Assembly: GCA_017616895.1 (NCBI GenBank)
Contig: JAFZXE010000027.1
Span: 18,438 to 82,437 of the forward strand
DNA length: 64,000 bases
Source: Bacteroidales bacterium
GTDB taxonomy: Bacteria > Bacteroidota > Bacteroidia > Bacteroidales > P3
Reading direction: 5' to 3'
In this document: positions 5,276-21,484 of the stretch, piece after piece
Numbering within the stretch: position 1 is the stretch's first letter
Layout: each line of letters begins with the position of its first letter
Notes under the pieces: model-generated
Told to the model about the DNA's origin: nothing
What the model saw: the letters and a program-made list of their open reading frames with translations, nothing else
The model's database searches: none
Made by a program: the position numbers and the translations under genes

Positions 5276-5391
5276 TATGTGGCTGACAGCTATTATTCGG
5301 AGAGAAATATCTCAGATTTCTTGAAGAAATACTCCATTTTGTTTTATTTCTACTCTAATTCTGTTTTATTTCTCTTCCGCTAACCGCTAAA

Positions 5392-6011: not shown

Positions 6012-7646
6012 ATGAACAACACAATCTTTTCATTCCCGAAGCCTGAGAACGAGCCCGTTCTCGGTTACAAACCTGGCAGCGCCGAGCGCAAGGAAATCCG
6101 CAAGGCCCTCGAAGACCTCTACAAGAAAACCACCACCATCTGCCCCATAATCGGCGGCAAGGAGATCAAGACCAAAGAGATGGGCCAGATTGTCATGCCC
6201 ACCGACAACAAGCACGTCTTGGCCAAATACTATAAAGTTACCGACAAAGAGGTGAAGGCTGCCATCGCCGCCGCAATGAAAGCTCACGAGGAGTGGGCCA
6301 ACATGCCTTGGATCGACCGCGCCAGCATCATGCAGAAAATAGCCACCCTCATCTCCGGCAAATACCGTTGGCTCATCAACGCAGCCACCATGCTCGGACA
6401 GGGCAAAACCACCATGCAGGCCGAAATCGACTCGGCTTGCGAGCTCGTTGACTTCCTCCGCTACAATGCCTACTACGCTTCGCAGATCTACAGCGACCAG
6501 CCTTGCAGCGACAAGGGCACCCTCAACTACGTGACCTACCGTCCTCTCGAGGGCTTCGTGTTCGCCATCACCCCGTTCAACTTCACCTCCATCGCCTCCA
6601 ACCTCTGCCTCAGCCCCGTGCTCATGGGCAATGTCTGCATCTGGAAGCCTTCCACCACCGCCATGCTCTCCAACTACCTCCTCATGAAGATTTACAAAGA
6701 GGCAGGTCTGCCCGACGGCGTTGTCAACTTCCTCCCCGGCAGCGGCTCACTCATCGGCAAGGTGGCCTTCGCCGACGAGAACCTCGCCGGTGTGCACTTC
6801 ACCGGCTCGACCGGCACCTTCAACAGCTTCTGGAAATCCATCGGTGACAACATCGCCAAATACAAGACCTATCCCAAGATTGTCGGCGAGACCGGCGGCA
6901 AGGACTTCATCTTCGCCCACAAGAGTGCCGACCCCGAGCAGGTGGCCACTGCCATCGTCCGTGGCGCCTTCGAGTATCAGGGTCAGAAATGCTCCGCAGC
7001 CAGCCGTGCCTACGTTCCCAAGAGCCTCTGGCCCAAGGTGCAGAAGCTGGTCGGCAAGATGATTGACGAAATCAAGGTCGGCGATGTCCGCGACTTCAGT
7101 GCCTTCGTCAACGCCGTCATCGACGAAGCCTCCTTCGACAACTGCATGCGCTATATCGACCATGCCAAGAAGAGCAAGGATGCCGAGATAGTCTTCGGCG
7201 GTAAGGGCGACAAGAAGAAAGGTTGGTTCATCCAGCCCACCGTCATCCTCGCCAAGACCCCCAAATACAAATCCATGTGCGAGGAAATCTTCGGACCTAT
7301 CATCACCATCTATGTCTATGAGGATGCCAAGTACGAGCAGACCCTCCACCTCTGCGACGAGACCTCTCCCTATGCCCTCACCGGTGCCATCTTTGCCGAC
7401 GACCGCAAGGCTCTCCGTCAGGGTGCCGAGATTCTGAAATATGCAGCCGGCAACATCTATTACAACGACAAGCCCACCGGAGCTGTCGTAGGTCAGCAGC
7501 CCTTCGGAGGTGCCCGTGCCAGCGGCACCAACGACAAGGCCGGTTCCTACCTCAACCTCATCCGCTGGACCTCGCCTCAGGCCATCAAAGAGACCTTCGA
7601 CCCCGCCCGCAACTACGCCTACCCCTTCATCAGCAAGGAAGACTAA
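6012..7646 (+). CDS. pruA: L-glutamate gamma-semialdehyde (1-pyrroline-5-carboxylate) dehydrogenase
   Basis: 544-aa aldehyde dehydrogenase with FTGSTGTF, GETGGKDF and the catalytic EYQGQKCSAASR. Length and N-terminus are typical of stand-alone P5C dehydrogenases. Confidence 0.9.
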   Translation: MNNTIFSFPKPENEPVLGYKPGSAERKEIRKALEDLYKKTTTICPIIGGKEIKTKEMGQIVMPTDNKHVLAKYYKVTDKEVKAAIAAAMKAHEEWANMPWIDRASIMQKIATLISGKYRWLINAATMLGQGKTTMQAEIDSACELVDFLRYNAYYASQIYSDQPCSDKGTLNYVTYRPLEGFVFAITPFNFTSIASNLCLSPVLMGNVCIWKPSTTAMLSNYLLMKIYKEAGLPDGVVNFLPGSGSLIGKVAFADENLAGVHFTGSTGTFNSFWKSIGDNIAKYKTYPKIVGETGGKDFIFAHKSADPEQVATAIVRGAFEYQGQKCSAASRAYVPKSLWPKVQKLVGKMIDEIKVGDVRDFSAFVNAVIDEASFDNCMRYIDHAKKSKDAEIVFGGKGDKKKGWFIQPTVILAKTPKYKSMCEEIFGPIITIYVYEDAKYEQTLHLCDETSPYALTGAIFADDRKALRQGAEILKYAAGNIYYNDKPTGAVVGQQPFGGARASGTNDKAGSYLNLIRWTSPQAIKETFDPARNYAYPFISKED

Positions 7647-7686
7647 GCAGGGTCGTCAGACTATACAAACCCACAATTACACGCAC

Positions 7687-7725
7687 AGAAGCGGGGCAAC
7701 CATCAATTGCCCCGCTTCTTTTTTA
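7687..7725 (+). terminator. rho-independent terminator after pruA
   Basis: 13-bp stem AGAAGCGGGGCAA / TTGCCCCGCTTCT followed by TTTTTT. Confidence 0.85.
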
Positions 7726-7734
7726 CCCCAGCAT

Positions 7735-7752
7735 CCCCCCCCAAAAAAAAAA
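7735..7752. repeat. homopolymer tract C8 A10
   Basis: Direct count gives C at 7735-7742 and A at 7743-7752. A second C6A7 tract is at 7833-7845. Confidence 0.9.
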
Positions 7753-7774
7753 CATATTAAACCCCGCACCCAAA

Positions 7775-7902
7775 ACTTCATACAGCCCCCACGCAACCTC
7801 CAATCCAACCCCACAACCCAAACTTCATACATCCCCCCAAAAAAACTCCAATCCAATCCCACAACCCAGACTTCATACAGACTTCATACAGACCTGATAC
7901 AG
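7775..7902. repeat. C/A-rich word array (ACTTCATACAG family) with a 34-nt direct repeat
   Basis: CTCCAATCCAA(C/T)CCCACAACCCA(A/G)ACTTCATACA occurs at 7798-7831 and 7846-7879 (2 mismatches). Tandem 11-mers ACTTCATACAG, ACTTCATACAG, ACCTGATACAG are at 7870-7902. Confidence 0.9.
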
Positions 7903-7989
7903 ACCCCACCCATACCTTGAGCACACCGCTATTCCAAAAGTGAGGGAACAAACAGATGTGTTTATTCTGAAAAAATTAGTATCTTTGCA

Positions 7990-7997
7990 TATTTAAT
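7990..7997 (+). promoter_or_regulatory. Bacteroidota -7 box (TATCTTTG)
   Basis: Lies 41 nt upstream of the glnS ATG. Confidence 0.6.
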
Positions 7998-8037
7998 GAA
8001 TAGTCTTTATATATATAATATTCTATAATTCTTTAAT

Positions 8038-9741
8038 ATGGATAACGAAATCAAGTGCGAAGAGCAGGGGAGACAGTTGAACTTTCTGGAGGAGATTATT
8101 GAGGACGACCTGAAAAACGGTGTCCACAAATCGATATTGACGCGTTTCCCCCCCGAGCCTAACGGCTACCTGCATATCGGCCACGCAAAGTCGATCTGCC
8201 TCAATTTCGGACTTGGCCTCAAATATGGCGGCAAGACCAACCTGCGCTTTGACGACACCAACCCCGTGAAGGAGGACACCGAGTATGTAGAATCCATCAT
8301 GGAAGACATCAAGTGGCTCGGTTTCCAGTGGGCCGGCGTACACTATACGTCCGACTATTTCGACCAGCTCTACGAGTGGGCAGTCGTATTGATTAAGAAA
8401 GGACTGGCCTACGTCGACGACCAGACACTCGACGAGATACGCGCCAATCGCGGCACAGTGACGCAGCCGGGCAAGAACAGTCCCTGGCGGGATCGTTCGA
8501 TAGAGGAAAACCTCGACCTGTTTGAGAGGATGAAAGCCGGTGAGTTTGCCGACGGCGAGAAAGTTCTGCGCGCCAAGATTGATATGGCTCACCCCAACAT
8601 GCAGTTCCGCGACCCCATCATGTATCGCATACTGCACGCTTCGCACCATCGCACGGGCGACAAGTGGTGCATCTACCCGATGTACGACTACGCTCACGGT
8701 CAGAGCGACTCCATCGAGAACATTACCCACAGCATCTGCACGCTGGAATTCGACATCCACCGTCCGCTCTACGACTGGTTCATAGAGAAGTTGGAAATAT
8801 TTCCCAGTCACCAGTATGAGTTTGCAAGGCTGAACATCAACTACACCGTGATGTCGAAACGCAAACTGCTGCAGCTGGTGAAGGAAGGGCATGTGAGCGG
8901 ATGGGATGACCCGCGTATGCCGACTATCTGCGGATTTCGCCGCAGGGGTTACACTCCCGAAAGCATCAAGGCGTTCTGCGACCGTATCGGGGTGGCAAAA
9001 CGCGACAACATCATCGACTACTCGCTGCTTGAGTTTTCACTACGTGAACACCTCAACAAAGTGGCTCTGCGCCGTATGGCTGTCCTCGACCCCGTGAAGG
9101 TCGTAATCGACAACTATCCCGATGGGCAGAGCGAGATGCTCACCGCCGTCAACAATCCTGAATGTGAGGCCGACGGCACCCGCCAGGTCCCATTCTCGAA
9201 GGAACTCTACATCGAACGCGAGGACTTTATGGAGGTTGCTCCAAAGAAATACTTCCGAATGGCGATAGGTCAGGAGGTGCGTCTCCGCTACGCTTACTTC
9301 GTGACGGCTCAGAGCGTTGAGAAGGACGCCGACGGCAACATCACTTGCATCCACTGCACCTACGATCCGGCAACCCGCGGCGGCGACGCCCCCGACGGAC
9401 GCAAGGTCAAAGGCACCATCCACTGGGTGAGTGCTCAGCATGCCATCGACGCCGAGGTGCGTCTCTTCGACCGCCTCTTTGCTGTCGAAGCGCCCGACGA
9501 CTGTCCCGAAGGCAAGACCTTCCTCGACAACCTCAATCCCGACTCGCTCAAGGTGATGAATGCCAAATGCGAACCAGCCCTTCAAAATTCAAAATTCGAT
9601 ATTCAAAATTGGAAAGACGGCATCGCTCGCTACCAGTTCGAACGCATGGGCTATTTCTGCATCGACAAGGATTCAACCCCCGAACACCTCGTGTTCAACC
9701 GCACAGCAACCCTGAAAGACAGCTGGGCAAAGGTGAAGTGA
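8038..9741 (+). CDS. glnS: glutamine--tRNA ligase
   Basis: 567 aa with the class I HIGH motif ([13 protein letters not shown]) and KMSKS variant (VMSKRK). The GlnRS-type C-terminal anticodon-binding beta-barrels are present. Confidence 0.95.
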
Positions 9742-9744
9742 ACG

Positions 9745-11172
9745 ATGAGTTTGACAAAGAGTCATATTGTCACATGGTTGGGAGACATCCGTTTTTGGAT
9801 AGTTGTCCTGGCTCTGCTACGGCTATATGGCATTGTCAACCCTCCATTGGAGGTGTCTCACTCATGGCGGCAGACTACTGTTGCGATGGTGTCCCGTAAC
9901 TACTATGAGGTTGACCCCGATATTCTATATCCGCGCATTGATATTGGTGGAGACCTTACTGGCATTACCGGCATGGAGTTTCCCCTGCTGAATTGGCTGA
10001 TATATCTATTTTCGCTGCTGTTCGGCTTCCACGAATGGTTCGGCCGTTTGATCAATTTGGTGGTGACGAGCGTGGGATGCTGGTATTTCTATTTGTTGAT
10101 AAAGTCGTTCTTCAATGATCGTCATGCTTTCTGTGCAACACTGATTCTATGCACCTCATTATGGTTCGCCTATGCTCGTAAGATTATGCCTGACACTTTT
10201 TCCATGTCTCTCGTCATCATAGGCATTTACTATGGTACGGATTACTTGTTGCATGATCGTAGACGCTTCGGGAGCCTTATCGCCTATGTGTTGATAACGA
10301 TGGCTGGCGTGTTGTCCAAATTGCCGTCGGGCTACATTTTGGTCGTGTTTTTGCCATTATTGCTGACCAAGACCGTGCCGCTTCATCGCAAAGTTTGGTT
10401 CTTTGCTCTCTCGGTGCTCATGATGCTGCCTGTGGCTTGGTGGTACTTTCTTTGGGTGCCGCATCTGGTAGAAAACTATGGTTTGCGACATTTTTTTATG
10501 GGAGAAGGCATTGGTCAAGGAATGAGTGAGATATGGCACCATTTGGGACGTACCTTGTACAGGTTTTATGACAACGCTCTTAAGTATATCGGCTTTGCTG
10601 TTTTTGCTTTCGGTTTAGCGATGGCGTTTGTCCGCCGGCAGAAGTTGTTGCTTCGTCTCTTAGGACTGGCTTTTGCCGCTTTCCTGTTTGTAATGTTCGT
10701 TTCGGGCCAAACATTCGTCAAACACGACTATTATGTAGTTCCGTTTGTGCCTGTGATGGCTATGGCGGCTGGCTATGGCGTGTCGCTCATCAACAAGTCA
10801 GCCTGGCGGGCTGTTTTGCTGTCAGCAGTGGCTTTGGAGAACATCTTAAACCATCACAGTCAGTTTGTCATACCCGACAACCGGCAACCGGTGTTGGCTT
10901 TGGAGCATGTGTTCGACAGCCTCTCCGATCGTAACGACTTGATATGCGTCAACAGCGGTCAGGATCCAACGGTTATGTACTTCACTCATCGTAAAGGTTG
11001 GGTCGTCTCAAACGAGCAGTTATTGGATGAGACGTTTAGAAACGACATCCGTCGGCGTGGGTGTAAGTATATGCTTGTGATGAAGCAGGTGTTTGGTGGC
11101 AATGTCGTGTTGCCAATGCGGCGCCTTGTCGATAATGAGAATTATACAATATATCGTTTTTCTGAAGAATAA
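9745..11172 (+). CDS. polytopic membrane glycosyltransferase (GT39 / ArnT-PMT_2-like)
   Basis: 475 aa with about 11 predicted TM helices and a soluble C-terminal domain. The architecture resembles ArnT/PMT-family lipid-linked-sugar transferases. Assigned from architecture only. Confidence 0.5.
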   Translation: MSLTKSHIVTWLGDIRFWIVVLALLRLYGIVNPPLEVSHSWRQTTVAMVSRNYYEVDPDILYPRIDIGGDLTGITGMEFPLLNWLIYLFSLLFGFHEWFGRLINLVVTSVGCWYFYLLIKSFFNDRHAFCATLILCTSLWFAYARKIMPDTFSMSLVIIGIYYGTDYLLHDRRRFGSLIAYVLITMAGVLSKLPSGYILVVFLPLLLTKTVPLHRKVWFFALSVLMMLPVAWWYFLWVPHLVENYGLRHFFMGEGIGQGMSEIWHHLGRTLYRFYDNALKYIGFAVFAFGLAMAFVRRQKLLLRLLGLAFAAFLFVMFVSGQTFVKHDYYVVPFVPVMAMAAGYGVSLINKSAWRAVLLSAVALENILNHHSQFVIPDNRQPVLALEHVFDSLSDRNDLICVNSGQDPTVMYFTHRKGWVVSNEQLLDETFRNDIRRRGCKYMLVMKQVFGGNVVLPMRRLVDNENYTIYRFSEE

Positions 11173-11180
11173 ATACCAAT

Positions 11181-11259
11181 ATCCATCAACATAAAACATA
11201 TCAACATATCAACATAAAACCTATCAACAGTAAAAGTAAAAAGTAAACGGTAAACAACC
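11181..11259. repeat. word array (CATATCAAC family, then GTAAA(A/C) family)
   Basis: ATCCATCAACATAAAACATATCAACATATCAACATAAAACCTATCAACAGTAAAAGTAAAAAGTAAACGGTAAAC, directly upstream of pheT. Confidence 0.9.
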
Positions 11260-11268
11260 TATACAACT

Positions 11269-13758
11269 ATGAATATATCCTACAAATGGCTTAAGGATTA
11301 TGTCGATTATGGCGACATGACGCCTGAACAACTTGACGAATTGCTGACCTTCTCGGGTCTTGAGGTGGAAGGCATAGAGAAAGTAGAGACCATAAAAGGC
11401 GGATTGGAGCATGTGGTGATTGCACAGGTTTTGACCTGCGAACCTCATCCCGACAGCGACCACCTGCACCTCACCACCGTCGATGTGGGCGGCGAGCGCC
11501 CTCTCAATATCGTCTGCGGCGCACCCAATGTGGCTGCCGGACAGAAGGTGGTGTGCGCCCAGATTGGCACCAAGATATATACCTCCGACACCGAGTTCTA
11601 TGAGATAAAGAAAGGCAAACTGCGCGGCGCCGTGAGCGAGGGAATGCTTTGTGCTGCCGACGAGCTACAGCTGGGCAGCGACCACGCCGGCATCATGGTT
11701 CTGCCCGACGACGCTCCTGTCGGTATGCCCGCCAAGGAGTATTTCCATGTCGAGGAAGACTATGTGCTCGAGGTGGCTATCACAGCCAACCGTAGCGACG
11801 CCACAAGCCATGTCGGCGTGGCTCGCGATGTGGTGGCTGTATTGAACACCCGCAACTCTGCAGGTCTGAAACTGCAGATACCGCCTGTCACAGCTCCGCT
11901 GGTGCCAAAAACAACCGACGGCGCGATAAGCGTCACCGTCGAACGTCCCGAACTCTGTCCTCGTTACACGGGCATCACCCTGCGCGGTGTTAAGGTCGCC
12001 GAATCTCCCGACTGGCTTCAAAACCGGCTACGCACAGTCGGCATCCGTCCGATAAACAACATCGTCGATGTCACCAACTATATCCTCATGGAGATTGGTC
12101 AGCCAATGCACGCCTTCGACGCCGACCGCATCAGCGGCAACCAGGTGGTCGTTAAGTGTATGCCTACTGGCACACCTTTCGTCACCCTCGACGGAGTGGA
12201 ACGCAAACTCGACGAAAACGACCTGATGATATGCAATGCCGATGAGCCCATGTGCATAGCTGGCGTATTCGGCGGCGAGAAGAGCGGCGTGACGATGCAG
12301 ACGACCAACATATTCCTCGAAAGCGCCTACTTCAATCCCGTGACCGTCCGCAAGACCTCCAAACGTCACGGCATCAAGACCGACGCCTCGTTCCGCTTCG
12401 AGCGCGGTTGCGACCCCAACATCACCATCTGGGCACTGCAACGGGCCGTCAAGCTCATACAGGAAATCGCCGGCGGCGACATCTGCGGCAATATGGTCGA
12501 TGAGTATCCGCAGCAGATCCACCGCGCCAATGTCGAAATCAACTTCAAGCGCGTGTTCGACCTCATCGGCAAGGAAATCCCCGTCGACGTCATCCGCACC
12601 GCACTCACCTCGCTCGGCATAGAGATAGTACGCGAAGAGAAAGACGGCATGTTCCTCAAGATTCCCACCTGCAAAGTCGATGTCTATCGCGAATGCGACG
12701 TGGTCGAGGAGATCATGCGCATCTACGGCTACAACAATATCACCTTCGACCAGCGGCTCAACAGCTGCCTCTCATACGGCAAGAAGCCTAACCCCCGCAA
12801 ACTGCAGAACCGCGTGTCCGACTATCTGTCCGACAACGGCTTCTTCGAGATAATGAACAACTCCCTCACCAAGAGTGAGTACTACGAGGGCAATCCCGAC
12901 TTCGACTCCGCAAACAACGTGGTCATCCTCAACCCGCTCAGCAAAGAGCTCAACGTCATGCGCCAGACCCTCCTCTACAGCGGCCTCGAGTGCGTGGTGA
13001 GAAACATCAACCACAAGTGTCTCGACCAAAAACTCTATGAGTTTGGCCGCACCTACCAGCTAAACCACGACTACATCCCCGTCGATGCAGGGTCGGTCGA
13101 TGTGACCAAGAAATACATCGAGACGCAGCATCTGTCTCTCTTCATGACCGGCGCCCTCTCGCCCGAAAACTGGAAACAGAAGCAGTCTCCCGTCGATTTC
13201 TACAACCTCAAGGAGTATGTGATGAACATCCTCTCCAGGATGCGCATCAACCTCTCGCGCCTCGAATTCTTACCGGCTGCAGAGAAATATTTTGCCGAAG
13301 GCTACGACATCCAGATGCGCGACAGCAAGAAACTCCTGCTCTCCTTCGGTCGCCTCTCCAAAGAGGTCCTCAAAAAGATGGATTGCAAGCAGGATGTCTT
13401 CTATGCCGACTTCAACTGGTCGCTCATGCTCAAAAACTATCCCGACAAAGAGGTTACCTATCGCGAGCTGCCCAAGTTCCCCGAGGTGCGACGCGACTTG
13501 GCTCTGGTCATCGACAATGGCGTCACCTTCGCCGAGATCGAGCGTGTCGCCTATTCCTCCGAGAAGAAACTGCTCAAGAGCGTCTCGCTCTTCGACGTCT
13601 ATGAAGGCAAAGGCATCGAGGAAGGCAAGAAATCGTATGCCGTCAGCTTCATCCTTCAGGACAACGACAAGACTCTCAACGACAAGCAAATCGAAGCCGT
13701 GATGACAAAACTCCAGTCCAACCTCGAAAAACAACTCGGGGCTAAAATCCGCAGCTGA
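11269..13758 (+). CDS. pheT: phenylalanine--tRNA ligase beta subunit
   Basis: 829 aa with an N-terminal tRNA-binding (EMAP-like) domain, B3/4 and B5 domains, and a C-terminal FDX-ACB domain (SLFDVYEGKGI). Confidence 0.95.
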   Translation: MNISYKWLKDYVDYGDMTPEQLDELLTFSGLEVEGIEKVETIKGGLEHVVIAQVLTCEPHPDSDHLHLTTVDVGGERPLNIVCGAPNVAAGQKVVCAQIGTKIYTSDTEFYEIKKGKLRGAVSEGMLCAADELQLGSDHAGIMVLPDDAPVGMPAKEYFHVEEDYVLEVAITANRSDATSHVGVARDVVAVLNTRNSAGLKLQIPPVTAPLVPKTTDGAISVTVERPELCPRYTGITLRGVKVAESPDWLQNRLRTVGIRPINNIVDVTNYILMEIGQPMHAFDADRISGNQVVVKCMPTGTPFVTLDGVERKLDENDLMICNADEPMCIAGVFGGEKSGVTMQTTNIFLESAYFNPVTVRKTSKRHGIKTDASFRFERGCDPNITIWALQRAVKLIQEIAGGDICGNMVDEYPQQIHRANVEINFKRVFDLIGKEIPVDVIRTALTSLGIEIVREEKDGMFLKIPTCKVDVYRECDVVEEIMRIYGYNNITFDQRLNSCLSYGKKPNPRKLQNRVSDYLSDNGFFEIMNNSLTKSEYYEGNPDFDSANNVVILNPLSKELNVMRQTLLYSGLECVVRNINHKCLDQKLYEFGRTYQLNHDYIPVDAGSVDVTKKYIETQHLSLFMTGALSPENWKQKQSPVDFYNLKEYVMNILSRMRINLSRLEFLPAAEKYFAEGYDIQMRDSKKLLLSFGRLSKEVLKKMDCKQDVFYADFNWSLMLKNYPDKEVTYRELPKFPEVRRDLALVIDNGVTFAEIERVAYSSEKKLLKSVSLFDVYEGKGIEEGKKSYAVSFILQDNDKTLNDKQIEAVMTKLQSNLEKQLGAKIRS

Positions 13759-13769
13759 TCAGCAGTTAG

Positions 13770-13783
13770 GTGCGTGCCCGCAC
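13770..13783 (+). repeat. stop-proximal palindromic motif GTGCGTGCCCGCAC
   Basis: Stem GTGCG/CGCAC with a 4-nt loop, 12 nt after the pheT stop. The identical 14-mer (reverse strand) is at 57986-57999 and 59184-59197. A 1-mismatch copy is at 24212-24225 and a variant is at 15448-15461. Confidence 0.85.
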
Positions 13784-13921
13784 TTTAAGGTTTAAAAGGT
13801 TTAAAAGGGTTCAAACAATCAACAGGTCACAGATCACAGGTCACATATCAACATATCAACAGAAAACATATCAACATATCAACGGTAAACATATCAACAT
13901 ATCAACAGTAAACCCATCAAC
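13784..13921. repeat. composite word array (AAGGTTTAA, TTCAAAC, GGTCACA, CATATCAAC modules)
   Basis: Read directly. The exact 30-mer CGCACTTTAAGGTTTAAAAGGTTTAAAAGG (13779-13808) recurs at 15457-15486. The exact 30-mer AAAAGGGTTCAAACAATCAACAGGTCACAG (13803-13832) recurs at 14386-14415. Confidence 0.95.
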
Positions 13922-13927
13922 ATCCCA

Positions 13928-14344
13928 ATGCTCGGACTTTTAAAATATGATGTGAAAGTGCTTCTCGCGTTGCAGCAGGCCATGAGGGGGAAGGACGACT
14001 TCTTCAACTGGCTGGTCAATGCGGGCTATCCTGAGCTTGCGGCTTTCTACAATCTTATCGAGGAAGACGAGGAGGCTGAGGCTTGGTTGGTGAAACATGG
14101 CTACCATTGGCTGGGTCTTTTAAGTCACGCCATCGACGGCGAGGATGCAGCGAGAGCGTGGGTGTTGAAAAACCTCCACCGCGCCAACTTCATGTTCTGC
14201 ATGGCTTGCAGGAAAGACGATCTGGCTATATCGTGGCTCAGACAGATGAAACTCGAAGTATTGCTGCGACTGGCACAGGAGGTCGCCGACATCAGAAAAA
14301 AGCAAGAGTCCGATGCCGCCTTCCCCTACAAGATGAGATTTTAA
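13928..14344 (+). CDS. hypothetical protein (138 aa)
   Basis: Clean ORF with ATG and composition like its neighbours. No recognisable motif. Flanked on both sides by composite word arrays. Confidence 0.5.
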   Translation: MLGLLKYDVKVLLALQQAMRGKDDFFNWLVNAGYPELAAFYNLIEEDEEAEAWLVKHGYHWLGLLSHAIDGEDAARAWVLKNLHRANFMFCMACRKDDLAISWLRQMKLEVLLRLAQEVADIRKKQESDAAFPYKMRF

Positions 14345-14440
14345 GGTTTGAAAGGTTCAAAAGGTTTAAAAGGTTTAAAGGGTTCAAAAGGGTTCAAACA
14401 ATCAACAGGTCACAGGTCAACATATTAACGCAATTACACA
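14342..14440. repeat. composite word array (AAGGTTTAA, GGTCACA, TTAACGCAAT modules)
   Basis: Begins at the stop codon of the 138-aa ORF and contains the 30-mer shared with 13803-13832. Confidence 0.95.
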
Positions 14441-14452
14441 AAATAAATAATA

Positions 14453-15442
14453 GTGAACAAGGATAAAAAACCACGCAGTAACGATTCGTCTCGCCCGACA
14501 AGGCGCCCCAAGACCGATGGAAAGCCGTCGGAGCAGCGGAAGCGTGCCTTCAAGAAAGACGATCGGCCCGCAAAGAAGAGTTTTGCCGACAAGCCATCTC
14601 GTGGCCGTTCCGAAAAGACCGACAGGCAGGAGAGGGGAGAGCACAAGTCGTTTGAACGCAGGCCTGCTGTTAGAGCTGTCGGCGGCGAGAGACCTGCTGT
14701 AAGGAAGCCTTCGGTACGGAAAACCGATAAAGATACTGTTCGTCTGAACAAATATATCGCCAACGCGGGCATCTGCAGCCGTCGTGAGGCCGACAAACTC
14801 ATCGAAGCCGGCAGCGTCAAAGTCAACGGACAGGTTGTTACTCAGATGGGCTTTCAGGTCAGGCCTGGCGATGTCGTCTCCTACGGTGGCGAGACACTCA
14901 GTACCGAGGCAAAACGCTATTTCCTCATGAACAAGCCCAAAGGCTATATCACCACTGTCGATGACCCGCAAGAGCGCAAGACTGTCATGATGCTCATCGA
15001 CGGAGCATGCCGCGAGCGCATCTATCCCGTAGGCCGTCTCGACCGCAACACCACAGGACTTCTCCTTTTTACCAACGACGGCGAGCTGGCGCGCAAACTT
15101 ACACATCCTTCCACGATGGTATATAAGGTCTATCAGGTGGAGCTGAACAAAGCAGTCACTCGCGACGATATGAAGAAGATGCTCGAAGGCATTGAACTTG
15201 AGGACGGCATGATAAAGGTTGACGACGTGCAGTATGCCGAAGGGTTCAACGACAAACGCGTAGTGGGTGTCGCACTCCATTCGGGACGCAACCGCATCGT
15301 GCGCCGCATCTTCGAACATCTCGGCTACGAGGTGCACAAACTCGACCGCGTCATCTTTGCCGGACTCACCAAGAAAGACCTGCCACGTGGCCGCTACCGC
15401 GAGCTTACCGACAAAGAAGTCGGCTTCCTAAAGATGGTGTGA
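14453..15442 (+). CDS. rluB: 23S rRNA pseudouridine synthase, RluB/RsuA family, with basic N-terminal extension
   Basis: S4 domain (RLNKYIANAGICSRREADKLI) and catalytic motif GRLDRNTTGLLLFTNDG. An N-terminal low-complexity segment of about 95 aa is K/R/P-rich. The GTG start is provisional. Confidence 0.8.
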   Translation: MNKDKKPRSNDSSRPTRRPKTDGKPSEQRKRAFKKDDRPAKKSFADKPSRGRSEKTDRQERGEHKSFERRPAVRAVGGERPAVRKPSVRKTDKDTVRLNKYIANAGICSRREADKLIEAGSVKVNGQVVTQMGFQVRPGDVVSYGGETLSTEAKRYFLMNKPKGYITTVDDPQERKTVMMLIDGACRERIYPVGRLDRNTTGLLLFTNDGELARKLTHPSTMVYKVYQVELNKAVTRDDMKKMLEGIELEDGMIKVDDVQYAEGFNDKRVVGVALHSGRNRIVRRIFEHLGYEVHKLDRVIFAGLTKKDLPRGRYRELTDKEVGFLKMV

Positions 15443-15447
15443 GTTGG

Positions 15448-15461
15448 GTGCGAGCTCGCAC
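15448..15461 (+). repeat. stop-proximal palindromic motif variant GTGCGAGCTCGCAC
   Basis: Perfect 14-nt palindrome 6 nt after the rluB stop. It is followed by the same TTTAAGGTTTAAAAGG array seen after pheT. Confidence 0.85.
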
Positions 15462-15555
15462 TTTAAGGTTTAAAAGGTTTAAAAGGTTTGAAACATTCAA
15501 ACGTATCAACATATCAACATATTAACGCAATCACGCAATAACACATTAACACAAT
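15462..15555. repeat. composite word array (AAGGTTTAA, TTCAAAC, TATCAAC, TTAACGCAAT modules)
   Basis: TTTAAGGTTTAAAAGGTTTAAAAGGTTTGAAACATTCAAACGTATCAACATATCAACATATTAACGCAATCACGCAATAACACATTAACACAAT, ending 5 nt before the aspS ATG. Confidence 0.95.
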
Positions 15556-15560
15556 AAAAA

Positions 15561-17312
15561 ATGTATCGTACAAACACTTGTGGAGAATTAAATATATCGA
15601 ATGTCGGACAGCAGGTCACCCTTTGCGGATGGCTTCAGCGTAGTCGTGATCTCGGCGGTATGACCTTCATCGACCTTCGCGACCGCTACGGCATCACCCA
15701 GCTTGCTTTCAACATGGAGACTGATGCAACCCTCTGTGAGCAGGCTCGTCGCCTAGGACGTGAATACGTGCTGCAGGTCACTGGCACCGTCATCGAGCGC
15801 TCATCAAAAAACGCCAAAATACCCACTGGCGAGATTGAGATCCAAGTCTCCAAACTCACCGTACTCAACGAGTCGAAAGTGCCACCTTTTACCATTGAGG
15901 ACCAGAGCGATGGCGGCGACGACCTGCGTATGAAATACCGCTACCTCGACATCCGTCGCAACCCCGTCAAGAACAACCTCATATTGCGTCATCAGATGGC
16001 CATGCTCGTGCGCAACTACCTCAGCTCGCAGAACTTCCTGGAGATAGAGACTCCCATGCTCATCAAATCGACACCCGAAGGCGCACGCGACTTCGTGGTG
16101 CCCAGCCGTATGAATCCCGGCGAGTTCTACGCCCTTCCGCAAAGCCCACAGCAGTACAAACAGTTGCTTATGGTCGCCGGAATGGACCGCTATTTTCAAA
16201 TTGTCCGTTGTTTCCGCGACGAAGACCTCCGCGCCGACCGTCAGCCTGAATTCACGCAGATCGACTGCGAGATGTCGTTTGTCGAGCAGGAAGACGTCCT
16301 GCAGATGTTCGAGGGTTTGGCCAAGCACCTTTTCAAAGAGATGAAAGGACTTGAATTTGGAAAGTTCGAACGCATCTCCTGGCACGACGCGATGCGCCTC
16401 TACGGCAGCGACAAGCCCGACAAACGCTTCGGCATGGAGTTTGTCGAGGTCAACGATGTCGTCAAAGGACACGGCTTCGGATTGTTCGACAACGCACCGC
16501 TCGTCGTCGGCATCTGCGCTGCTGGCTGTGCCGAATACACCCGCAAACAGCTCGACGAACTTACCGAGTTCGTAAAACGTCCGCAGGTGGGCGCCGGCGG
16601 TATGGTATATGTCAAATACAACGCCGACGGCACCTTCAAGTCGTCCGTCGATAAGTTCTACGGCCAGGACGACCTCAAGGCCCTCGCCGACAAGTTCGGT
16701 GCCCGTCCGGGCGACCTCATGCTCCTGCTTTGTGGCGAGCCCATGAAGACACGTGTGCAGCTCTGCGCCCTCCGCCTCGAGATGGGCAGCCGTCTCGGAC
16801 TCCGAGACCCGCAGAAGTATGCTCCGCTTTGGGTTGTCGATTTCCCGCTGCTCGAGTGGGACGACGAGACGCAGCGTTTCTACGCCATGCACCATCCCTT
16901 CACAGCTCCCAAACCAGAGGACGAACCGCTTTTGGACGATCCCAACCGTTGGGGAGACATCCGTGCCAACGCCTACGATATCGTCATCAACGGAGTCGAG
17001 GTGGGAGGCGGCTCCATCCGTATCCACGACCGTCAGCTGCAGAACAAGATGTTCCACACGCTGGGATTCACCGACGAGAGCGCCTACGCTCAGTTCGGCT
17101 TCCTCATGGATGCCTTCACCTACGGTGCGCCGCCACATGCAGGCCTCGCCTTCGGATTCGACCGCCTCTGCTCCATCTTCGGCGGCGTCGATTCAATACG
17201 CGACTTCATCGCCTTCCCCAAGAACAACAGCGGCCGCGACGTCATGAGTGGCAGTCCTTCGCCCATAGCTAAAGAACAGCTGGAGGAGCTGCAGATAGCT
17301 ATCAAAAGCTGA
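15561..17312 (+). CDS. aspS: aspartate--tRNA ligase
   Basis: 583 aa with an N-terminal OB anticodon domain, class II motifs ([26 protein letters not shown]) and the bacterial GAD insertion. Confidence 0.95.
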
Positions 17313-17356
17313 CACCACGTCCAAATACATTAACGCATTAACACATGCTTCCACCA

Positions 17357-17386
17357 AAAGCAGCCCAATACCTAGGGCTGCTTTTT
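17357..17386 (+). terminator. rho-independent terminator after aspS
   Basis: Stem AAAAGCAGCCC / GGGCTGCTTTT followed by a T-run. Confidence 0.8.
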
Positions 17387-17426
17387 CCATTTTCACTGCT
17401 TCCAAACACACTGACACAGTCCCTAA

Positions 17427-17455
17427 CTCTGTATCAACTCTGTATCAAGTCTGTG
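17427..17455. repeat. tandem word array CTCTGTATCAA x2.5
   Basis: Direct reading gives CTCTGTATCAACTCTGTATCAAGTCTGTG. Confidence 0.8.
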
Positions 17456-17577
17456 TTGGGACTTCACATCCATGACGACTGAAGACGATTTCCTATGTCG
17501 CACCCCTACCAGTACAGACCTTGAAAAAATGTTGATTAGTAGTTCATAAATGACCGGCCGAATCACAATATTTTGCG

Positions 17578-17585
17578 TATATTTG
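17578..17585 (+). promoter_or_regulatory. Bacteroidota -7 box (TATATTTG)
   Basis: Lies 32 nt upstream of the ATG at 17617. Confidence 0.6.
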
Positions 17586-17616
17586 CAGTTTATTATTAAA
17601 CCTTTCGCGCAGGCGT

Positions 17617-18132
17617 ATGGGAAAGATTATCAGAAGATATAAGTCGGAGATTCATGGCAACTACCGTGTGGCGTACCTTAAGTGGGGCTTGTTGACGGGT
17701 CTCGTGCTTTCTCTCTACTTGTTGGTCAGGCATTGGTCCGGTGCCCCATGCTCCACTCCCGCCGACTTGGGGAAGGACGGCTTGCTTGTGGTGGGGATAG
17801 CGGTGGCGATGTATTTCTACAGGAGGTCGCTGCAGGACGGGAAGGTTACGATGAAGGAGCTGCTGCTCATGGGTTTAGGTGCAGGCTTGGTGGCGGCGGT
17901 GGTGTATGGGTTGTTTGTGTGGCTGTATTGCGGGGTGATGTATCCGGAGATGACGGGTGTGTATGCGGAGCGGTTCAAGACGGAGGAGTCGGCGGCGGAG
18001 GGCTATGTGGCTGCGTTGAACCCTGGGATGTGGGCGCTGATGTTCGGCTTCGTGAACACTTTTCTGACGTCTATAATCGTGACGTTCTTCGGTGCGCTTG
18101 TGTTCAGGACGGAGAAGGCGGATCGGGTGTGA
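17617..18132 (+). CDS. small integral membrane protein (DUF4199-like)
   Basis: 171 aa with 4 predicted TM helices, directly upstream of a GT2 gene as is common for DUF4199 in Bacteroidales. The family assignment is from memory. Confidence 0.5.
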   Translation: MGKIIRRYKSEIHGNYRVAYLKWGLLTGLVLSLYLLVRHWSGAPCSTPADLGKDGLLVVGIAVAMYFYRRSLQDGKVTMKELLLMGLGAGLVAAVVYGLFVWLYCGVMYPEMTGVYAERFKTEESAAEGYVAALNPGMWALMFGFVNTFLTSIIVTFFGALVFRTEKADRV

Positions 18133-18208
18133 GTTTTAAGTTTTAAGCTGTAAGTTTTAAGTAATCATATCAACGTATCAACATATCAACAGAAAACTTA
18201 TCAACATT
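18133..18208. repeat. word array (GCTGTAAGTTTTAAG then CATATCAAC family)
   Basis: GTTTTAAGTTTTAAGCTGTAAGTTTTAAGTAATCATATCAACGTATCAACATATCAACAGAAAACTTATCAAC. It shares 15-mers with 40838-40869. Confidence 0.9.
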
Positions 18209-18215
18209 TTAAACT

Positions 18216-19148
18216 ATGGATATTTCGATTATAGTACCTTTGTACAATGAGGAGGAGTCGTTGCCGCATCTGGCGGAGTGGATCGACCGCGTGATGGTTG
18301 AACACGGGTTCGACTATGAGGTGGTGATGGTGGACGACGGCAGCAACGACGGCTCGTGGAACGTGGTGGAGGGCCTGCATAACGCCAACCCACGCTACAG
18401 GGGAGTGAAGTTCCGCAGGAACTATGGTAAGTCGGCGGCGTTGAACGTGGGATTCGGCGTGGCTCAGGGCGACGTGGTGATAACTATGGACGCCGACCTG
18501 CAGGACAGCCCCGACGAGGTGCCTGAACTCTACCGCATGATAAAAGAGGAGGGCTACGACCTGGTGAGCGGATGGAAGAAGAAACGCTACGACTCGAAGC
18601 TGGCGAAGAACATCCCGTCGAAGTTTTTCAACTGGACGACGCGAAAGATGAGCGGCATAAAGCTGCACGACTTCAACTGCGGCTTGAAGGCATACAGGAA
18701 GGATGTGGTGAAGTCGATAGAGGTCTATGGCGAGATGCACAGATATATACCTGTGATTGCCAAATGGGCGGGATTCAAGAAGATAGGGGAGAAGGTGGTG
18801 CAGCACAGAAAGAGGGAGTTCGGTGTGACGAAATTCGGGATGGACCGCTTCGTGAACGGGTATCTCGACCTGATGAGCATCATGTTTATGTCGAAGTTCG
18901 GCAAGCAGCCGATGCATTTCTTCGGCTTGGTGGGCAGCGTGGCGTTCATGTTCGGATTTGTGGCGCTGGTGGTGGTTCTGGCGCTACGTTTGGCTCACGT
19001 CATAGCTTTGACTCGCAGCGTATGGTTCTTCCTGTCCATGTTCTTCACCATGATGGGATTGGTCCTTTTCCTGGCGGGGTTCATAGGCGAGCTTGTCTGC
19101 CGCAACTCCTCGACCAGAAACACCTACCTTATAGAAAAAGAAATCTAG
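18216..19148 (+). CDS. family 2 glycosyltransferase (polyprenyl-phosphate sugar synthase type)
   Basis: GT-A motifs SIIVPLYNEE, VDDGSNDGS and DADLQD, plus two C-terminal TM helices as in DPM1/ArnC/GtrB-type enzymes. Confidence 0.85.
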   Translation: MDISIIVPLYNEEESLPHLAEWIDRVMVEHGFDYEVVMVDDGSNDGSWNVVEGLHNANPRYRGVKFRRNYGKSAALNVGFGVAQGDVVITMDADLQDSPDEVPELYRMIKEEGYDLVSGWKKKRYDSKLAKNIPSKFFNWTTRKMSGIKLHDFNCGLKAYRKDVVKSIEVYGEMHRYIPVIAKWAGFKKIGEKVVQHRKREFGVTKFGMDRFVNGYLDLMSIMFMSKFGKQPMHFFGLVGSVAFMFGFVALVVVLALRLAHVIALTRSVWFFLSMFFTMMGLVLFLAGFIGELVCRNSSTRNTYLIEKEI

Positions 19149-19195
19149 TGGTCAGTGGTCGGCATCTAAAACAATAACACATTCAAACATTCAAC
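19149..19195. repeat. word array (TGGTCAGTGG; CAATAACACATTCAAACATTCAAC)
   Basis: Fills the whole spacer between the GT2 stop and the next start. Confidence 0.8.
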
Positions 19196-20179
19196 TTGAG
19201 ACACAGCAGCAGACATAGAAGGAAAAATAGGGGCATCGCATGGATTGTGCTTTTGCTGCTGGTCGCCGGCGGGGTGTTTTGTGCATGGAAGTTTGTCGGC
19301 GGACACAAATCCAACGGTGACGACGCTGTGCTGACAGAGAGTCATAGCCGGTTGCTGCGTAGCGAGATACCAAAGATGTCGCCTATGTCCTATTCGGAGA
19401 TGTTTCCCGACATGAACGATGTTCAGATAGAAGCTGCAAGACTCAACGGTTTGCGCAATCCCGACAACCTGACCGACCCGGAAGACAGCTACGAACTGGT
19501 TCCCGTCGAAACCTGCGACGACTACGTGATAGACACCTTGCGCCATTCGAAGCCCTACCTTGTACCACAGGCTGCACGGCTGCTGACATACGTCGGACAT
19601 CGGTTTGAGGAAATCCAGACCGAGCACCAGGTGAAGCAAAAGGTGCGTCCCATAGTGACGAGTCTGTTGCGAAGCAGCCATGACGTAGGCCGTCTCCGCA
19701 GGGTGAACCGTAATGCCAGCGAGAATTCGTGCCATGTCTATGGCACAACCTTCGACATATCATACACCCGCTTCATGGACGAGAACGGACGTATCGTGAC
19801 CGAGGACCCGATATACAAGGAACTGCTGGCCGCCGCCCTCTACGAGTTGCGATTCGAGGGGTTGTGCTATGTCCGCTACGAGCGTCGTCAGCCATGTTTC
19901 CACATCACGGTGCGCACTGTCGATTATGATGGCGATTTGGCTAGCCAGACGGTAGAATACGAGGTTGGCAACGGCCCAGTGCTGACCGCTATGGCTGAAA
20001 AAGAAACGGTAGAGACGCAGGTGAAAAAGGAGGTGACAGAGGTAACTGTGGAGAAAGAAGAGAAAAAGGAGCACAATGCGAACGAGGTGAAACCGGAAGA
20101 ACCCGTCGTGAAGAAAAACAACAATGTGCGTAGTCACTCAAAAGATTTTGATCGCCGAACCAATTATGTGTTTGATTAA
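19196..20179 (+). CDS. membrane-anchored protein, possibly M15-like peptidase fold (DUF5715-like)
   Basis: N-terminal TM helix. SCHVYGTTFDISY resembles the H-x-x-G-x-A-x-D metal-ligand region of VanY/M15 peptidases. K/E-rich C-terminal tail. TTG start. Confidence 0.4.
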   Translation: MRHSSRHRRKNRGIAWIVLLLLVAGGVFCAWKFVGGHKSNGDDAVLTESHSRLLRSEIPKMSPMSYSEMFPDMNDVQIEAARLNGLRNPDNLTDPEDSYELVPVETCDDYVIDTLRHSKPYLVPQAARLLTYVGHRFEEIQTEHQVKQKVRPIVTSLLRSSHDVGRLRRVNRNASENSCHVYGTTFDISYTRFMDENGRIVTEDPIYKELLAAALYELRFEGLCYVRYERRQPCFHITVRTVDYDGDLASQTVEYEVGNGPVLTAMAEKETVETQVKKEVTEVTVEKEEKKEHNANEVKPEEPVVKKNNNVRSHSKDFDRRTNYVFD

Positions 20180-20209
20180 ATAGCTTCAAGTTTTAAATTC
20201 CAAGTATCA

Positions 20210-21310
20210 ATGAGTTTACAATGTGGCATAGTAGGACTTCCGAATGTAGGGAAGTCAACCCTTTTCAACTGTTTGAGTAATGCGAAGGCGCAGGCGGCGA
20301 ACTTCCCGTTCTGCACCATCGAACCCAATGTTGGCGTAATAACGGTGCCGGACGAGAGGCTTAATAAACTGGTGGAGATAGAACATCCCGCCAGCGTGGT
20401 TCCCGCAACGGTAGAGATAGTCGATATAGCAGGCCTTGTGAAGGGCGCCAGCAAAGGAGAGGGGTTGGGCAACAAGTTTTTGGGCAACATACGTACCTGC
20501 GACGCTATAATACACGTGTTGCGCTGTTTCGACGACGACAATGTGACGCATGTCGATGGAAGCGTCGATCCGATTCGCGACAAGCAGACGATAGACCTCG
20601 AGTTGCAGTTTAAAGACCTCGAAACCATAGAGAACCGCTATGAGAAGGAGGTGAAGAAGGCGAAAGCCGGCGGCGACGCGAAGGCGAAAAAGCTGGTGGA
20701 GGTGATGGATCTTTATAAGGCTGCATTGCTTGGAGGGAAGAACGCGCGAACGGTAGAGCTCGACGAAAGTCAGCAAGAGGCGGCAAAAGACCTGATGCTG
20801 CTTACCGCCAAGCCTGTATTGTATGTCTGCAACGTCGATGAAGGCTCGGTGAAGAACGGCAACAAATATGTCGATATGGTGAAAACTGAAGTGAGCAGCG
20901 AGGACGCAGAGGTGCTGGTGATAGGTGCCGCCATCGAAGCCGACATCGCCGAGTTGGAGACATACGAAGAGAAGCAGATGTTTCTGGAAGACCTGGGATT
21001 GAGTGAGTCGGGAGTGAACCGATTGATAAAGGCGGCATATAAGCTGCTGGGTTTGCAGACGTTCCTTACGGCAGGTCCGAAAGAATGTAGAGCGTGGACT
21101 TTCCGCAAGGGTATGAAAGCACCCCAGACGGCCGGCATCATACACAGCGACTTTGAGAGAGGTTTCATACGCGCCGAAGTGATAAAATATGACGACTATG
21201 TGACGCTCGGAAGCGAAGCCAAATGCCGCGAGGCAGGCAAAATTGCCGTCGAAGGTAAGGACTATGTCGTACAGGACGGAGATATAATGCATTTCAGGTT
21301 TAATGTGTGA
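20210..21310 (+). CDS. ychF: redox-regulated ATPase YchF
   Basis: 366 aa with GIVGLPNVGKSTLFN (G1), DIAGLVKGAS, and the C-terminal TGS domain (RAWTFRKGMKAPQTAGIIHSDFERGFI). Confidence 0.95.
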   Translation: MSLQCGIVGLPNVGKSTLFNCLSNAKAQAANFPFCTIEPNVGVITVPDERLNKLVEIEHPASVVPATVEIVDIAGLVKGASKGEGLGNKFLGNIRTCDAIIHVLRCFDDDNVTHVDGSVDPIRDKQTIDLELQFKDLETIENRYEKEVKKAKAGGDAKAKKLVEVMDLYKAALLGGKNARTVELDESQQEAAKDLMLLTAKPVLYVCNVDEGSVKNGNKYVDMVKTEVSSEDAEVLVIGAAIEADIAELETYEEKQMFLEDLGLSESGVNRLIKAAYKLLGLQTFLTAGPKECRAWTFRKGMKAPQTAGIIHSDFERGFIRAEVIKYDDYVTLGSEAKCREAGKIAVEGKDYVVQDGDIMHFRFNV

Positions 21311-21484
21311 GGTTTGTTGATATGTTGATACGTTGATATGTTGATATGATAAAAAGGTTTGAAAGGTTTTGATAAGTCTAATAAGTCCAATGGGTCTAAT
21401 AAGTCTAAATAGGTCTAATAAGTCTAATGGGTTGATAGTTTGATATGTTGTTAAGAGGTCATAAAGGTTTTAGAGGTTTTAATG
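21311..21484. repeat. composite word array (GTTGATATG, AAGGTTT, TAAGTCTAAT(GGG) modules), running into the next ORF
   Basis: GTTGATATGTTGATACGTTGATATGTTGATATG, then GGTTTGAAAGGTTTTG, then ATAAGTCTAATAAGTCCAATGGGTCTAATAAGTCTAAATAGGTCTAATAAGTCTAATGGG. The first ~13 codons of the downstream ORF (HKGFRGFNG) are AAGGTTTTA words. Confidence 0.95.

Follow-up and report, generated by a model that had tools for sequence, protein, structure and literature searches.

Chained short-unit tandem arrays in the spacers of a pheT–aspS gene cluster from an uncultured Bacteroidales bacterium

The gene cluster and its three look-alike spacers

The window analyzed here is a 64-kb stretch of contig JAFZXE010000027.1 (Bacteroidales bacterium, assembly GCA_017616895.1), and with genes such as PPDK, glnS, pheT, aspS, ychF, purC, gyrA, recF, dciA-like, lpdA and others it represents ordinary core chromosome. 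The subject of this work is a set of three consecutive spacers within it: S1 between pheT and a 138-aa open reading frame (ORF138), S2 between ORF138 and rluB, and S3 between rluB and aspS. An initial annotation had called these four genes correctly and had described the spacers as three near-identical copies of a 100–170-nt element, with ORF138 possibly inserted into or captured between two of them. The features of this part of the window, with arrays delimited by Tandem Repeats Finder (TRF) where indicated, are the following.

11269–13758, plus strand: pheT, confirmed by Pfam
13759–13927, plus strand: spacer S1 (pheT to ORF138), in the order hairpin, GGTTTAAAA array, junction, GGTCACA array, ATATCAAC arrays
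13768–13785, plus strand: GC hairpin with core GTGCGTGCCCGCAC, 10 nt past the pheT stop; sole element of the centroid fold
13787–13808, plus strand: GGTTTAAAA 9-nt array, 2.4 copies (TRF)
13822–13845, plus strand: GGTCACA/GATCACA 7-nt array, 3.4 copies (TRF)
13843–13923, plus strand: ATATCAAC 8-nt arrays with a nested 23-nt period, A/C-rich and nearly G-free, stopping 4 nt short of the ORF138 start
13928–14344, plus strand: ORF138, conserved hypothetical, predicted all-alpha helical-repeat protein of 138 aa
14343–14452, plus strand: spacer S2 (ORF138 to rluB), in the order GGTTYAAAR array, junction, two GGTCACA units, TAACGCAA-type tail
14343–14398, plus strand: GGTTYAAAR 9-nt array, six copies, starting within the ORF138 stop codon
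14405–14419, plus strand: GGTCACA, two copies, with junction and unit as in S1, then the TAACGCAA-type tail
14453–15442, plus strand: rluB, RluB-type pseudouridine synthase with a GTG start, confirmed by Pfam
15443–15560, plus strand: spacer S3 (rluB to aspS), variant hairpin followed by three arrays
15448–15461, plus strand: hairpin variant GTGCGAGCTCGCAC
15465–15493, plus strand: GGTTTAAAA array, 3.2 copies (TRF)
15500–15526, plus strand: ATATCAAC array, 3.4 copies (TRF)
15523–15557, plus strand: TAACACAA array, 4.4 copies (TRF)
15561–17312, plus strand: aspS, confirmed by Pfam

A repeat search of both strands of the window recovered two exact 30-mers at precisely the coordinates annotated initially. 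The first, CGCACTTTAAGGTTTAAAAGGTTTAAAAGG, occurs at 13779–13808 and 15457–15486, and the second, AAAAGGGTTCAAACAATCAACAGGTCACAG, at 13803–13832 and 14386–14415. Neither has a further copy on either strand, and no other dispersed exact repeat of the whole window is as long. Alignment with MAFFT places the three spacers in colinear register across about 100 columns, bearing out that their modules follow the same order; calling them near-identical, however, overstates the likeness, as identity over the whole alignment amounts to only 67%. The likeness is that of a mosaic, with S1 closest to S3 at the 5′ end, S1 closest to S2 in the middle and S2 closest to S3 at the 3′ end. A stretch of about 70 nt is colinear in S1 and S2 and is distinguished by two unit indels, one of 9 nt and one of 7 nt.

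Reading of the sequence together with TRF resolves each of the three supposed elements into a chain of 7–9-nt tandem arrays. Their units are GGTTTAAAA, GGTCACA, ATATCAAC and TAACRCAA, and a small GC hairpin heads two of the spacers, S1 and S3. The string AAGGTTTAAAAGG is matched 11 times at up to one mismatch, against 0.07 expected. A fourth array-filled spacer in the same cluster, between a PMT_2 gene and pheT (11173–11268, plus strand), consists of ATCAACAT in 5.9 copies and AAAAGTA in 2.3 copies, shares an exact 21-mer with S1 and is predicted to be unstructured as RNA. RNA folding of six spacers yielded z-scores of −2.2 to +0.8 with the A/C-rich parts unpaired. A structured-RNA reading was rejected, since the only structure in the six folds is a short hairpin just past the stop codons of pheT and rluB, and an Rfam covariance-model scan of positions 7500–22000 returned no match at E ≤ 1.

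The boundaries of the transcription unit can be approached through the following signals.

7687–7719: strong terminator-like hairpin upstream of the cluster
7980–7988, plus strand: Bacteroidetes-type −7 motif TATCTTTGC ahead of glnS/gltX, presumed start of a six-gene unit (8038–17312)
17356–17385, plus strand: strong intrinsic-terminator-like hairpin after aspS, presumed end of the unit

The −7 motif TANNTTTGC is matched 20 times, against 7.3 expected. Between 7988 and 17578 the plus strand carries no such motif, and the single −7-like match in S3 is antisense and lies inside an array. A scan for sigma-70 promoters, uninformative for Bacteroidetes, did not rise above shuffled sequences. Given the terminators at 7687–7719 and 17356–17385 and the single sense −7 motif at 7980, the six genes glnS/gltX, PMT_2, pheT, ORF138, rluB and aspS therefore probably constitute one operon, to judge from these motifs, with S1–S3 as internal spacers. 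The proposal in the initial annotation that the spacers lie inside one transcription unit is thus supported. Between the upstream terminator and the −7 motif, the segment 7738–7917 carries three copies of a C-rich 48-nt repeat followed by CAGACTTCATA 11-mers.

Arrays across the window and in related genomes

Arrays occupy most of the window's spacers, all of which were inspected. At a TRF score of at least 30, about 45 intergenic arrays of 2–14 copies each are found in the 64 kb, covering 23–24% of intergenic DNA as opposed to 0.8% of coding DNA. They span 1,658 nt of spacers, compared with 64 ± 40 nt, or about 1%, in 100 dinucleotide-preserving shuffles (maximum 184 nt). Their periods are 7 nt (12 arrays), 8 nt (15), 9 nt (8) and 11 nt (8), with one of 16 nt; rare arrays also appear within coding sequences in the TRF listing. 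The string CATATCAACA is matched 42 times at up to one mismatch, where 3.6 matches are expected. Dispersed repeats of at least 16 nt number 74 (40 direct, 34 inverted), nearly all of them joining one intergenic site to another, and they link more than 12 spacers. Scans of most of the larger open reading frames of the window revealed no transposase or RAYT-like genes and no mobile-element domains. The more prominent array sites outside the operon are listed here.

18132–18207, plus strand: GTTTTAA, 4.4 copies from the stop codon, then CATATCAA, 5.4 copies to the next start; shares 20–22-mers with S1 and S3
21315–21428, plus strand: ATATCAAC unit inverted (G/T-rich) just past the ychF stop, then a TAATAAGTC array; has a 26-nt inverted exact repeat in common with 18166–18191
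30210–30327, plus strand: GTTGATAN, GTTTAAAAG and GTTGATAK arrays past a CYTH-like open reading frame; shares 21-mers with S1 and S2
54284–54377 and 54779–54885, minus strand: TAACRCAA-type 8-nt arrays of 12–14 copies each, flanking the dciA-like open reading frame at 54402–54767
5336–5373, 7864–7917, 17425–17454, 32441–32564, 33928–34001, 38192–38228 and 45099–45133: sites named for the eight arrays of 11-nt period

The TAACRCAA-type arrays around the dciA-like gene, which lies downstream of recF, are the longest in the window and share 17-nt exact repeats. The 7–9-nt arrays mostly occupy operon-internal spacers. The spacers of all eight 11-nt arrays contain a promoter motif or a terminator, or lie between divergent or convergent genes, compared with 14 of 35 of the 7–9-nt arrays (Fisher p = 0.004, a post hoc comparison). 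Since 11 nt is close to the helical repeat of DNA, these arrays may be a class acting at the level of DNA and not of RNA.

The placement of arrays relative to genes is not random with respect to strand. In array-rich loci, start-proximal arrays are A/C-rich on the sense strand in 25 cases and G/T-rich in 2 (binomial p = 6e-6), whereas stop-proximal arrays split 20:17 (Fisher p = 0.0008 for the contrast). Many start-proximal arrays end 3–33 nt before the start codon. Orientation follows position even for a single unit, with ATATCAAC before starts and GTTGATAT just past the ychF and CYTH-like stops. Several arrays begin within the upstream stop codon (14343, 18132, 30210, 40832, 47306), and in 34% of spacers the 45 nt past the stop codon contain stops in every frame, compared with 19% in shuffles. 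Initiation regions of Bacteroidetes are described as lacking Shine-Dalgarno sequences, low in structure, AUG-depleted and marked by upstream adenines (PMC6847099), and the arrays agree with this description.

The same kind of spacer is found in a number of related genomes, referred to here by L numbers. Arrays cover 29–79% of the non-coding DNA in L001–L004 and L007–L010, and about 0–5% in many other relatives. In the array-rich group, a quarter or more of non-coding DNA thus consists of arrays drawn from a shared unit vocabulary. The initially reported three copies of a discrete 100–170-nt element are therefore better described as local cases of tandem arrays that are window-wide and lineage-wide. 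The nearest genomes (L009, L001, L003) belong to different species, their genes being 81–86% identical to those of the window; for this reason an apparent "fast turnover" of their spacers relative to those of the window was discounted. The nearest species hold arrays at the orthologous junctions, mostly of other units: CTTTTAA, ACACCCTT, TAGTGAT and AAACTAA in L009, and GTTTTAA, CAGTCAG and TAACACAA in L001 and L003. Their unit vocabulary nevertheless agrees with that of the window within one mismatch for 6/6, 7/8 and 7/10 units, well above chance, while the overlap with distant relatives is at about chance level. The string (CATATCAA)x3 is present at no fewer than 120 metagenome loci. By contrast, the 23-mer spanning the S1/S2 junction had no exact match in JGI metagenome contigs, which leaves a dispersed composite unsupported.

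Closer comparisons offer a view of how the arrays change. L009 and L010 are 92% identical with alignable spacers; the differences between them amount to one 8-nt unit, several 7-nt units and a whole composite of about 93 nt that is duplicated in tandem. The sole spacer indel between L007 and L008 (97% identical) is one 9-nt unit, and independent assemblies of the same strain (L001/L002, L003/L004 and L007/L040, 99.96–99.99%) have identical spacers. Aligned array positions of L009 and L010 are 92% identical compared with 86% for third codon positions, with the caveat that repeat alignments inflate identity. Because the indels are unit-sized and substitutions accumulate no faster than at third positions of codons, unit indels dominate, which is the signature of slippage or unequal recombination. 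Some composites of L009 are tandem duplicates of entire blocks (11480–11676). In some relatives, as in L020 (7625–7751; GATTTAA and TTAAATC), the post-stop and pre-start arrays are partly complementary; some spacers could therefore form long imperfect hairpins composed of arrays.

Likeness between spacers of the window depends on proximity. The four longest shared strings join spacers no more than 3.1 kb apart, and 37% of the spacer pairs sharing at least 18 nt lie within 5 kb, compared with 15% of all pairs (permutation p = 0.003). From this proximity-dependent similarity we infer local copying of blocks between neighboring spacers, which would have yielded the S1/S2/S3 mosaic and the two 30-mers. 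The suggestion that sequence was duplicated between the spacers flanking ORF138 is supported in this sense, both by the dependence on proximity and by the colinear stretch shared by S1 and S2.

ORF138 and its neighbors

ORF138 belongs to a well-conserved family. Its homologues fall into about 100 clusters at 47–95% identity, all from uncultured Bacteroidales (rumen and horse, goat and deer gut); one relative bears the name Candidatus Colimorpha, Bacteroidales incertae sedis. Among 20 sequences, 29 columns are invariant. The protein contains an internal repeat of about 25 aa (a..WL...g....L) in about four copies and, at its C-terminus, a nearly invariant PYKMRF. The AlphaFold2 model (pLDDT 89) predicts about ten stacked helices, most of them short. 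The profile search of the 138-aa protein matched no known family, as nothing significant was found in Pfam, NCBIfam, PADLOC or PDB sequence profiles and the sole NCBIfam match fell far below cutoff. A Foldseek search with the model gave no significant fold neighbor either (best E = 1.2).

The position of the gene is remarkably constant. In each of the loci examined, from about 40 relatives with identities down to 47%, ORF138 immediately precedes rluB, and in nearly all of them it follows pheT; this fixed place suggests a functional link to the pseudouridine synthase. In the distant relatives L005–L008, L017, L019, L031, L036 and L037 both of its junctions measure 0–16 nt and are free of repeats; in L166–L168 they measure 5 and 22 nt and are likewise repeat-free. 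Junctions of 0–16 nt between pheT, ORF138 and rluB predominate among the more distant relatives. Tight junctions would hence be the ancestral state and array-filled ones derived in the sub-clade of the window. As the junctions of distant relatives are repeat-free, ORF138 predates the repeats and is not a captured gene. Relatives that keep the gene in place between repeat-free spacers are the very result that the initial annotation had specified as ruling out a link of the open reading frame with the repeats. Bracketing by repeats is not special to ORF138 either, since the dciA-like open reading frame is bracketed in the same manner.

The junction upstream of ORF138 is plastic and, from the gene orders compared, a rearrangement hotspot in the clade. 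In L163–L165, where ORF138 is 90% identical, a gene with a Bro-N domain lies between pheT and ORF138 (4110–4976); this domain is typical of phage or mobile DNA. In L003 and L004 a pagL-like gene takes the place of pheT. On the other side of ORF138, the first 95 or so residues of the RluB-type protein (14453–14740) form a Lys/Arg-rich low-complexity extension before the S4 domain, and the GTG start of rluB is also present in L009.

Origin and role of the arrays

We consider it likely that S1–S3 are concatenated 7–9-nt arrays internal to an operon, one local instance of a trait found in a group of uncultured Bacteroidales from rumen and hindgut, and that ORF138 is an older resident gene and not their cargo. 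In the most conservative form of this reading, the arrays would be mutationally generated filler that survives where it complies with RNA-level constraints already in place. They could arise through replication slippage, some perhaps being seeded, more speculatively, by the terminal TTTTAA of the gene itself, and could then spread from one spacer to others close by through ectopic recombination, gene conversion or template switching, primed at units they have in common. Within a polycistronic mRNA they would persist since they meet the intercistronic RNA constraints of Bacteroidetes. Ahead of a start codon, this would mean a G-poor, A/C-rich, start-codon-poor and unstructured runway for initiation independent of Shine-Dalgarno pairing. 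Past a stop codon either orientation would be tolerated, and stop-rich 7-mers would often supply stops in all three frames.

Several observations weigh against this account or limit what it explains. The A-rich, G-poor gradient toward starts is equally strong in array-poor relatives, and a composition gradient as an array-specific trait was accordingly rejected; spacer length is also similar overall (median 85 versus 69 nt). With gradient and spacer lengths alike in array-poor relatives, the arrays may therefore be tolerated filler and nothing more. Some start-adjacent arrays are G/T-rich (30300–30327), and among 80 metagenome loci with (CATATCAA)x3 the orientation bias is 19:7, a noisy figure given GC contents of 0.29–0.61 and crude gene calls. 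Slippage alone leaves the recurrence of the same units across many genomes and spacers unexplained, and the higher identity of array positions relative to third codon positions could hint at constraint.

In a rival reading, the arrays are positively selected cis-acting mRNA platforms, with 7–9-nt units at regular intervals that would be bound by single-strand RNA-binding proteins (ribosomal protein bS1, cold-shock proteins, or Rho through YC-dinucleotide sites) and so set the relative translation or polarity of operon genes where Shine-Dalgarno pairing is lacking. The 25:2 bias of start-adjacent arrays in strand and position, their C-containing, G-poor and unstructured character, the reuse of the same units in many spacers and genomes and a conservation of array positions that equals or exceeds that of third codon positions are all consistent with it. 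The same proposal has been made for TAACTGA arrays (PMC4679880), and bS1 has been suggested to recognize upstream A-rich motifs in Bacteroidetes (PMC6847099). Sister species, however, carry other units or none at the orthologous junctions of the same housekeeping genes, array-poor relatives share the compositional gradient, and the 10–20 nt that immediately precede the start mostly consist of unique A-rich sequence in place of array, so that we regard selected platforms as rather unlikely. Equally doubtful in our view is a broader version, a lineage-wide punctuation system in which 7–9-nt mRNA arrays would serve as tunable, fast-evolving platforms for bS1, cold-shock proteins or Rho that govern translation and polarity between cistrons, 11-nt arrays would act at the DNA level and a lineage-specific mechanism would copy the units from one spacer to its neighbors.

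The module order common to S1–S3 could alternatively stem from three insertions of a discrete small mobile element, now decayed, such as a miniature inverted-repeat transposable element (MITE), a REP/BIME or a BOX-like mosaic. The dispersed hairpin GTGCGTGCCCGCAC(AGGRCRATAA), which heads S1 and S3 and recurs at gene ends and in other genomes, and a second dispersed palindrome, GGATTTGTAATCC, would fit such an origin. Yet none of the three spacers is framed by terminal inverted repeats or target duplications, and their modules occur independently elsewhere, in either orientation and other combinations. With the S1/S2 junction 23-mer unmatched in the metagenome contigs, no transposase or RAYT-like gene among the window genes scanned and relatives that differ by unit-sized indels instead of presence or absence of a whole element, this origin is quite improbable. 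Capture of ORF138 between two element copies would account for the 30-nt direct repeat on both sides of the gene and for its plastic upstream junction, with the Bro-N gene and the exchange of pheT for pagL. Its conservation as a family, its constant place at pheT–rluB or directly upstream of rluB, the repeat-free junctions of distant relatives and the similarly bracketed dciA-like gene make capture very improbable. The initial interpretation therefore holds for the single transcription unit and for local copying between spacers, and fails for the capture of ORF138. Hardly any weight, finally, falls on contingency loci (phase variation) or assembly artefacts, as suggested by copy number varying between related genomes: the genes are housekeeping aminoacyl-tRNA synthetases and similar, the arrays lie neither between promoter elements nor inside reading frames, and identical spacers in independent assemblies of one strain argue against artefacts as well as very high instability.

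The spacers belong to short-unit intergenic tandem arrays, and among these they are unusual in density, in chaining within housekeeping-operon spacers and in host lineage. The closest general class is the long simple sequence repeats (LSSR) with units of 5–11 nt (Mrazek et al. 2007, cited through PMC4679880; surveyed in PMC4060949). These consist of head-to-tail 7–11-nt units with prominent heptamers, exceed chance by far in length and frequency, are concentrated in non-coding DNA, are sporadic in phylogeny and have a proposed slippage origin. The arrays of the window possess the features that define this class, with tandem 7-, 8-, 9- and 11-nt units in excess over shuffles and non-triplet units mainly non-coding, but several arrays are chained per short housekeeping-operon spacer, 8-mers are as common as 7-mers and intergenic density reaches 24%. 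A second comparison is offered by the heptamer TAACTGA, which forms direct repeats in marine Beggiatoaceae, in some cyanobacteria and in five Bacteroidetes (MacGregor 2015, PMC4679880). These are also intergenic, lie a few nt upstream of starts in fixed orientation and ahead of housekeeping genes with leaders poor in Shine-Dalgarno sequences; they often overlap the upstream stop and give stops in three frames, and a role at the RNA level (S1, cold-shock proteins) has been proposed for them (PMC4679880). That system is essentially built on one unit, with related heptamers rarely repeated, whereas dozens of unit families are present here, and the window contains no TAACTGA doublet and four single occurrences. 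The start-adjacent placement in one orientation (25:2) is hence a resemblance in behavior to the TAACTGA arrays and not membership among them.

Heterocyst-forming cyanobacteria harbor short tandemly repeated repetitive (STRR) heptamers with the units CCCCAGT, TTGGTCA and CAACAGT. They too comprise several tandem-heptamer families scattered in the non-coding DNA of one lineage, but belong to another phylum with other units, and the present arrays include units of 8, 9 and 11 nt as well; no tandem doublet of the three STRR units was found in the window. REP, BIME and BOX modules are structured, of fixed sequence and 35–60 nt long. The REP/BIME of E. coli and pneumococcal BOX resemble the present spacers as modular intercistronic or 3′ composites with variable module copy number (boxB) and a palindromic hairpin after the stop; they differ in that the units here are unstructured and 7–9 nt long, without defined ends or a transposase among the open reading frames scanned, and the hairpin is much shorter than REP. 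As to MITE features, no inverted repeat bounds S1, S2 or S3 and their folds show no end-to-end pairing. A CRISPR array was ruled out, as the units of 7–11 nt abut each other in place of repeats of about 23–50 nt with unique spacers.

As a rule, the intergenic DNA of bacteria is compact and poor in repeats. According to a survey of prokaryotic satellites, a few bacteria possess many short-repeat satellites derived from heptamers or hexamers, which are attributed there to local replication errors (Subirana and Messeguer 2019, PMC6749651). In that survey only 18 bacterial species exceed 4 satellites per Mb, and although about 45 arrays are present in our 64 kb, the definitions differ and the figures are not directly comparable. 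In the literature searched we found no description of rumen Bacteroidales with this array trait. The array-rich lineage, which has arrays even among its aminoacyl-tRNA synthetase genes, can be regarded as a natural experiment on what intercistronic spacers need without Shine-Dalgarno pairing. If functional, the arrays would constitute a simple and evolvable means of tuning expression within operons. On the practical side, they could serve as strain markers in rumen metagenomics, and they can mislead both repeat-based element finders and annotation, where they may be taken for bracketing "elements" or for gene fusions, as in the region 24826–26373.

In this region, a 515-aa open reading frame (24826–26373) contains both an APH-like phosphotransferase domain and a RapZ C-terminal domain. 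The frame continues across two stretches of array-like DNA at 25647–25694 and 25917–25965 (CACAAGT, AGCAGTC and CAACCCTT, with the 16-nt repeat AGCAGTCAGCGGTCAG), and may be a gene fusion that originated from read-through of stop-free spacer arrays.

Two dispersed palindromes also occur in the window. The palindrome GGATTTGTAATCC lies in convergent or divergent spacers at 38139–38151, 38167–38179 and 32673–32685 (3 matches versus 0.04 expected) and twice in relative L163 (6504–6800, 9756–9995). The GC hairpin motif GTGCGTGCCCGCAC, usually extended as AGGRCRAT(A)A, is found at or just past stop codons in several related genomes. Its core has three copies and two variants in the window and recurs in three other genomes, mostly at gene ends; at up to one mismatch, 7 matches versus 3.0 expected are weakly above chance. 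The sites are as follows.

13770–13783, plus strand: GTGCGTGCCCGCAC copy in S1
57986–57999 and 59184–59197, minus strand: GTGCGTGCCCGCAC copies
15448–15461 and 24212–24225: variants
L003, 2306–2319: one copy; L075: three copies; L151: two copies

A speculative role for the hairpin that follows the stop codons of pheT and rluB would be that of a weak attenuator or 3′-end stabilizer. The motif is sometimes found in frame within coding sequence, where it always encodes C-V-P-A-Q-G. The internal hairpin copy of lpdA was rejected as an in-frame insertion, since an alignment with solved homologues shows a single additional residue at most. Directly past the lpdA stop lies a 22-nt exact copy of an internal segment of the gene.

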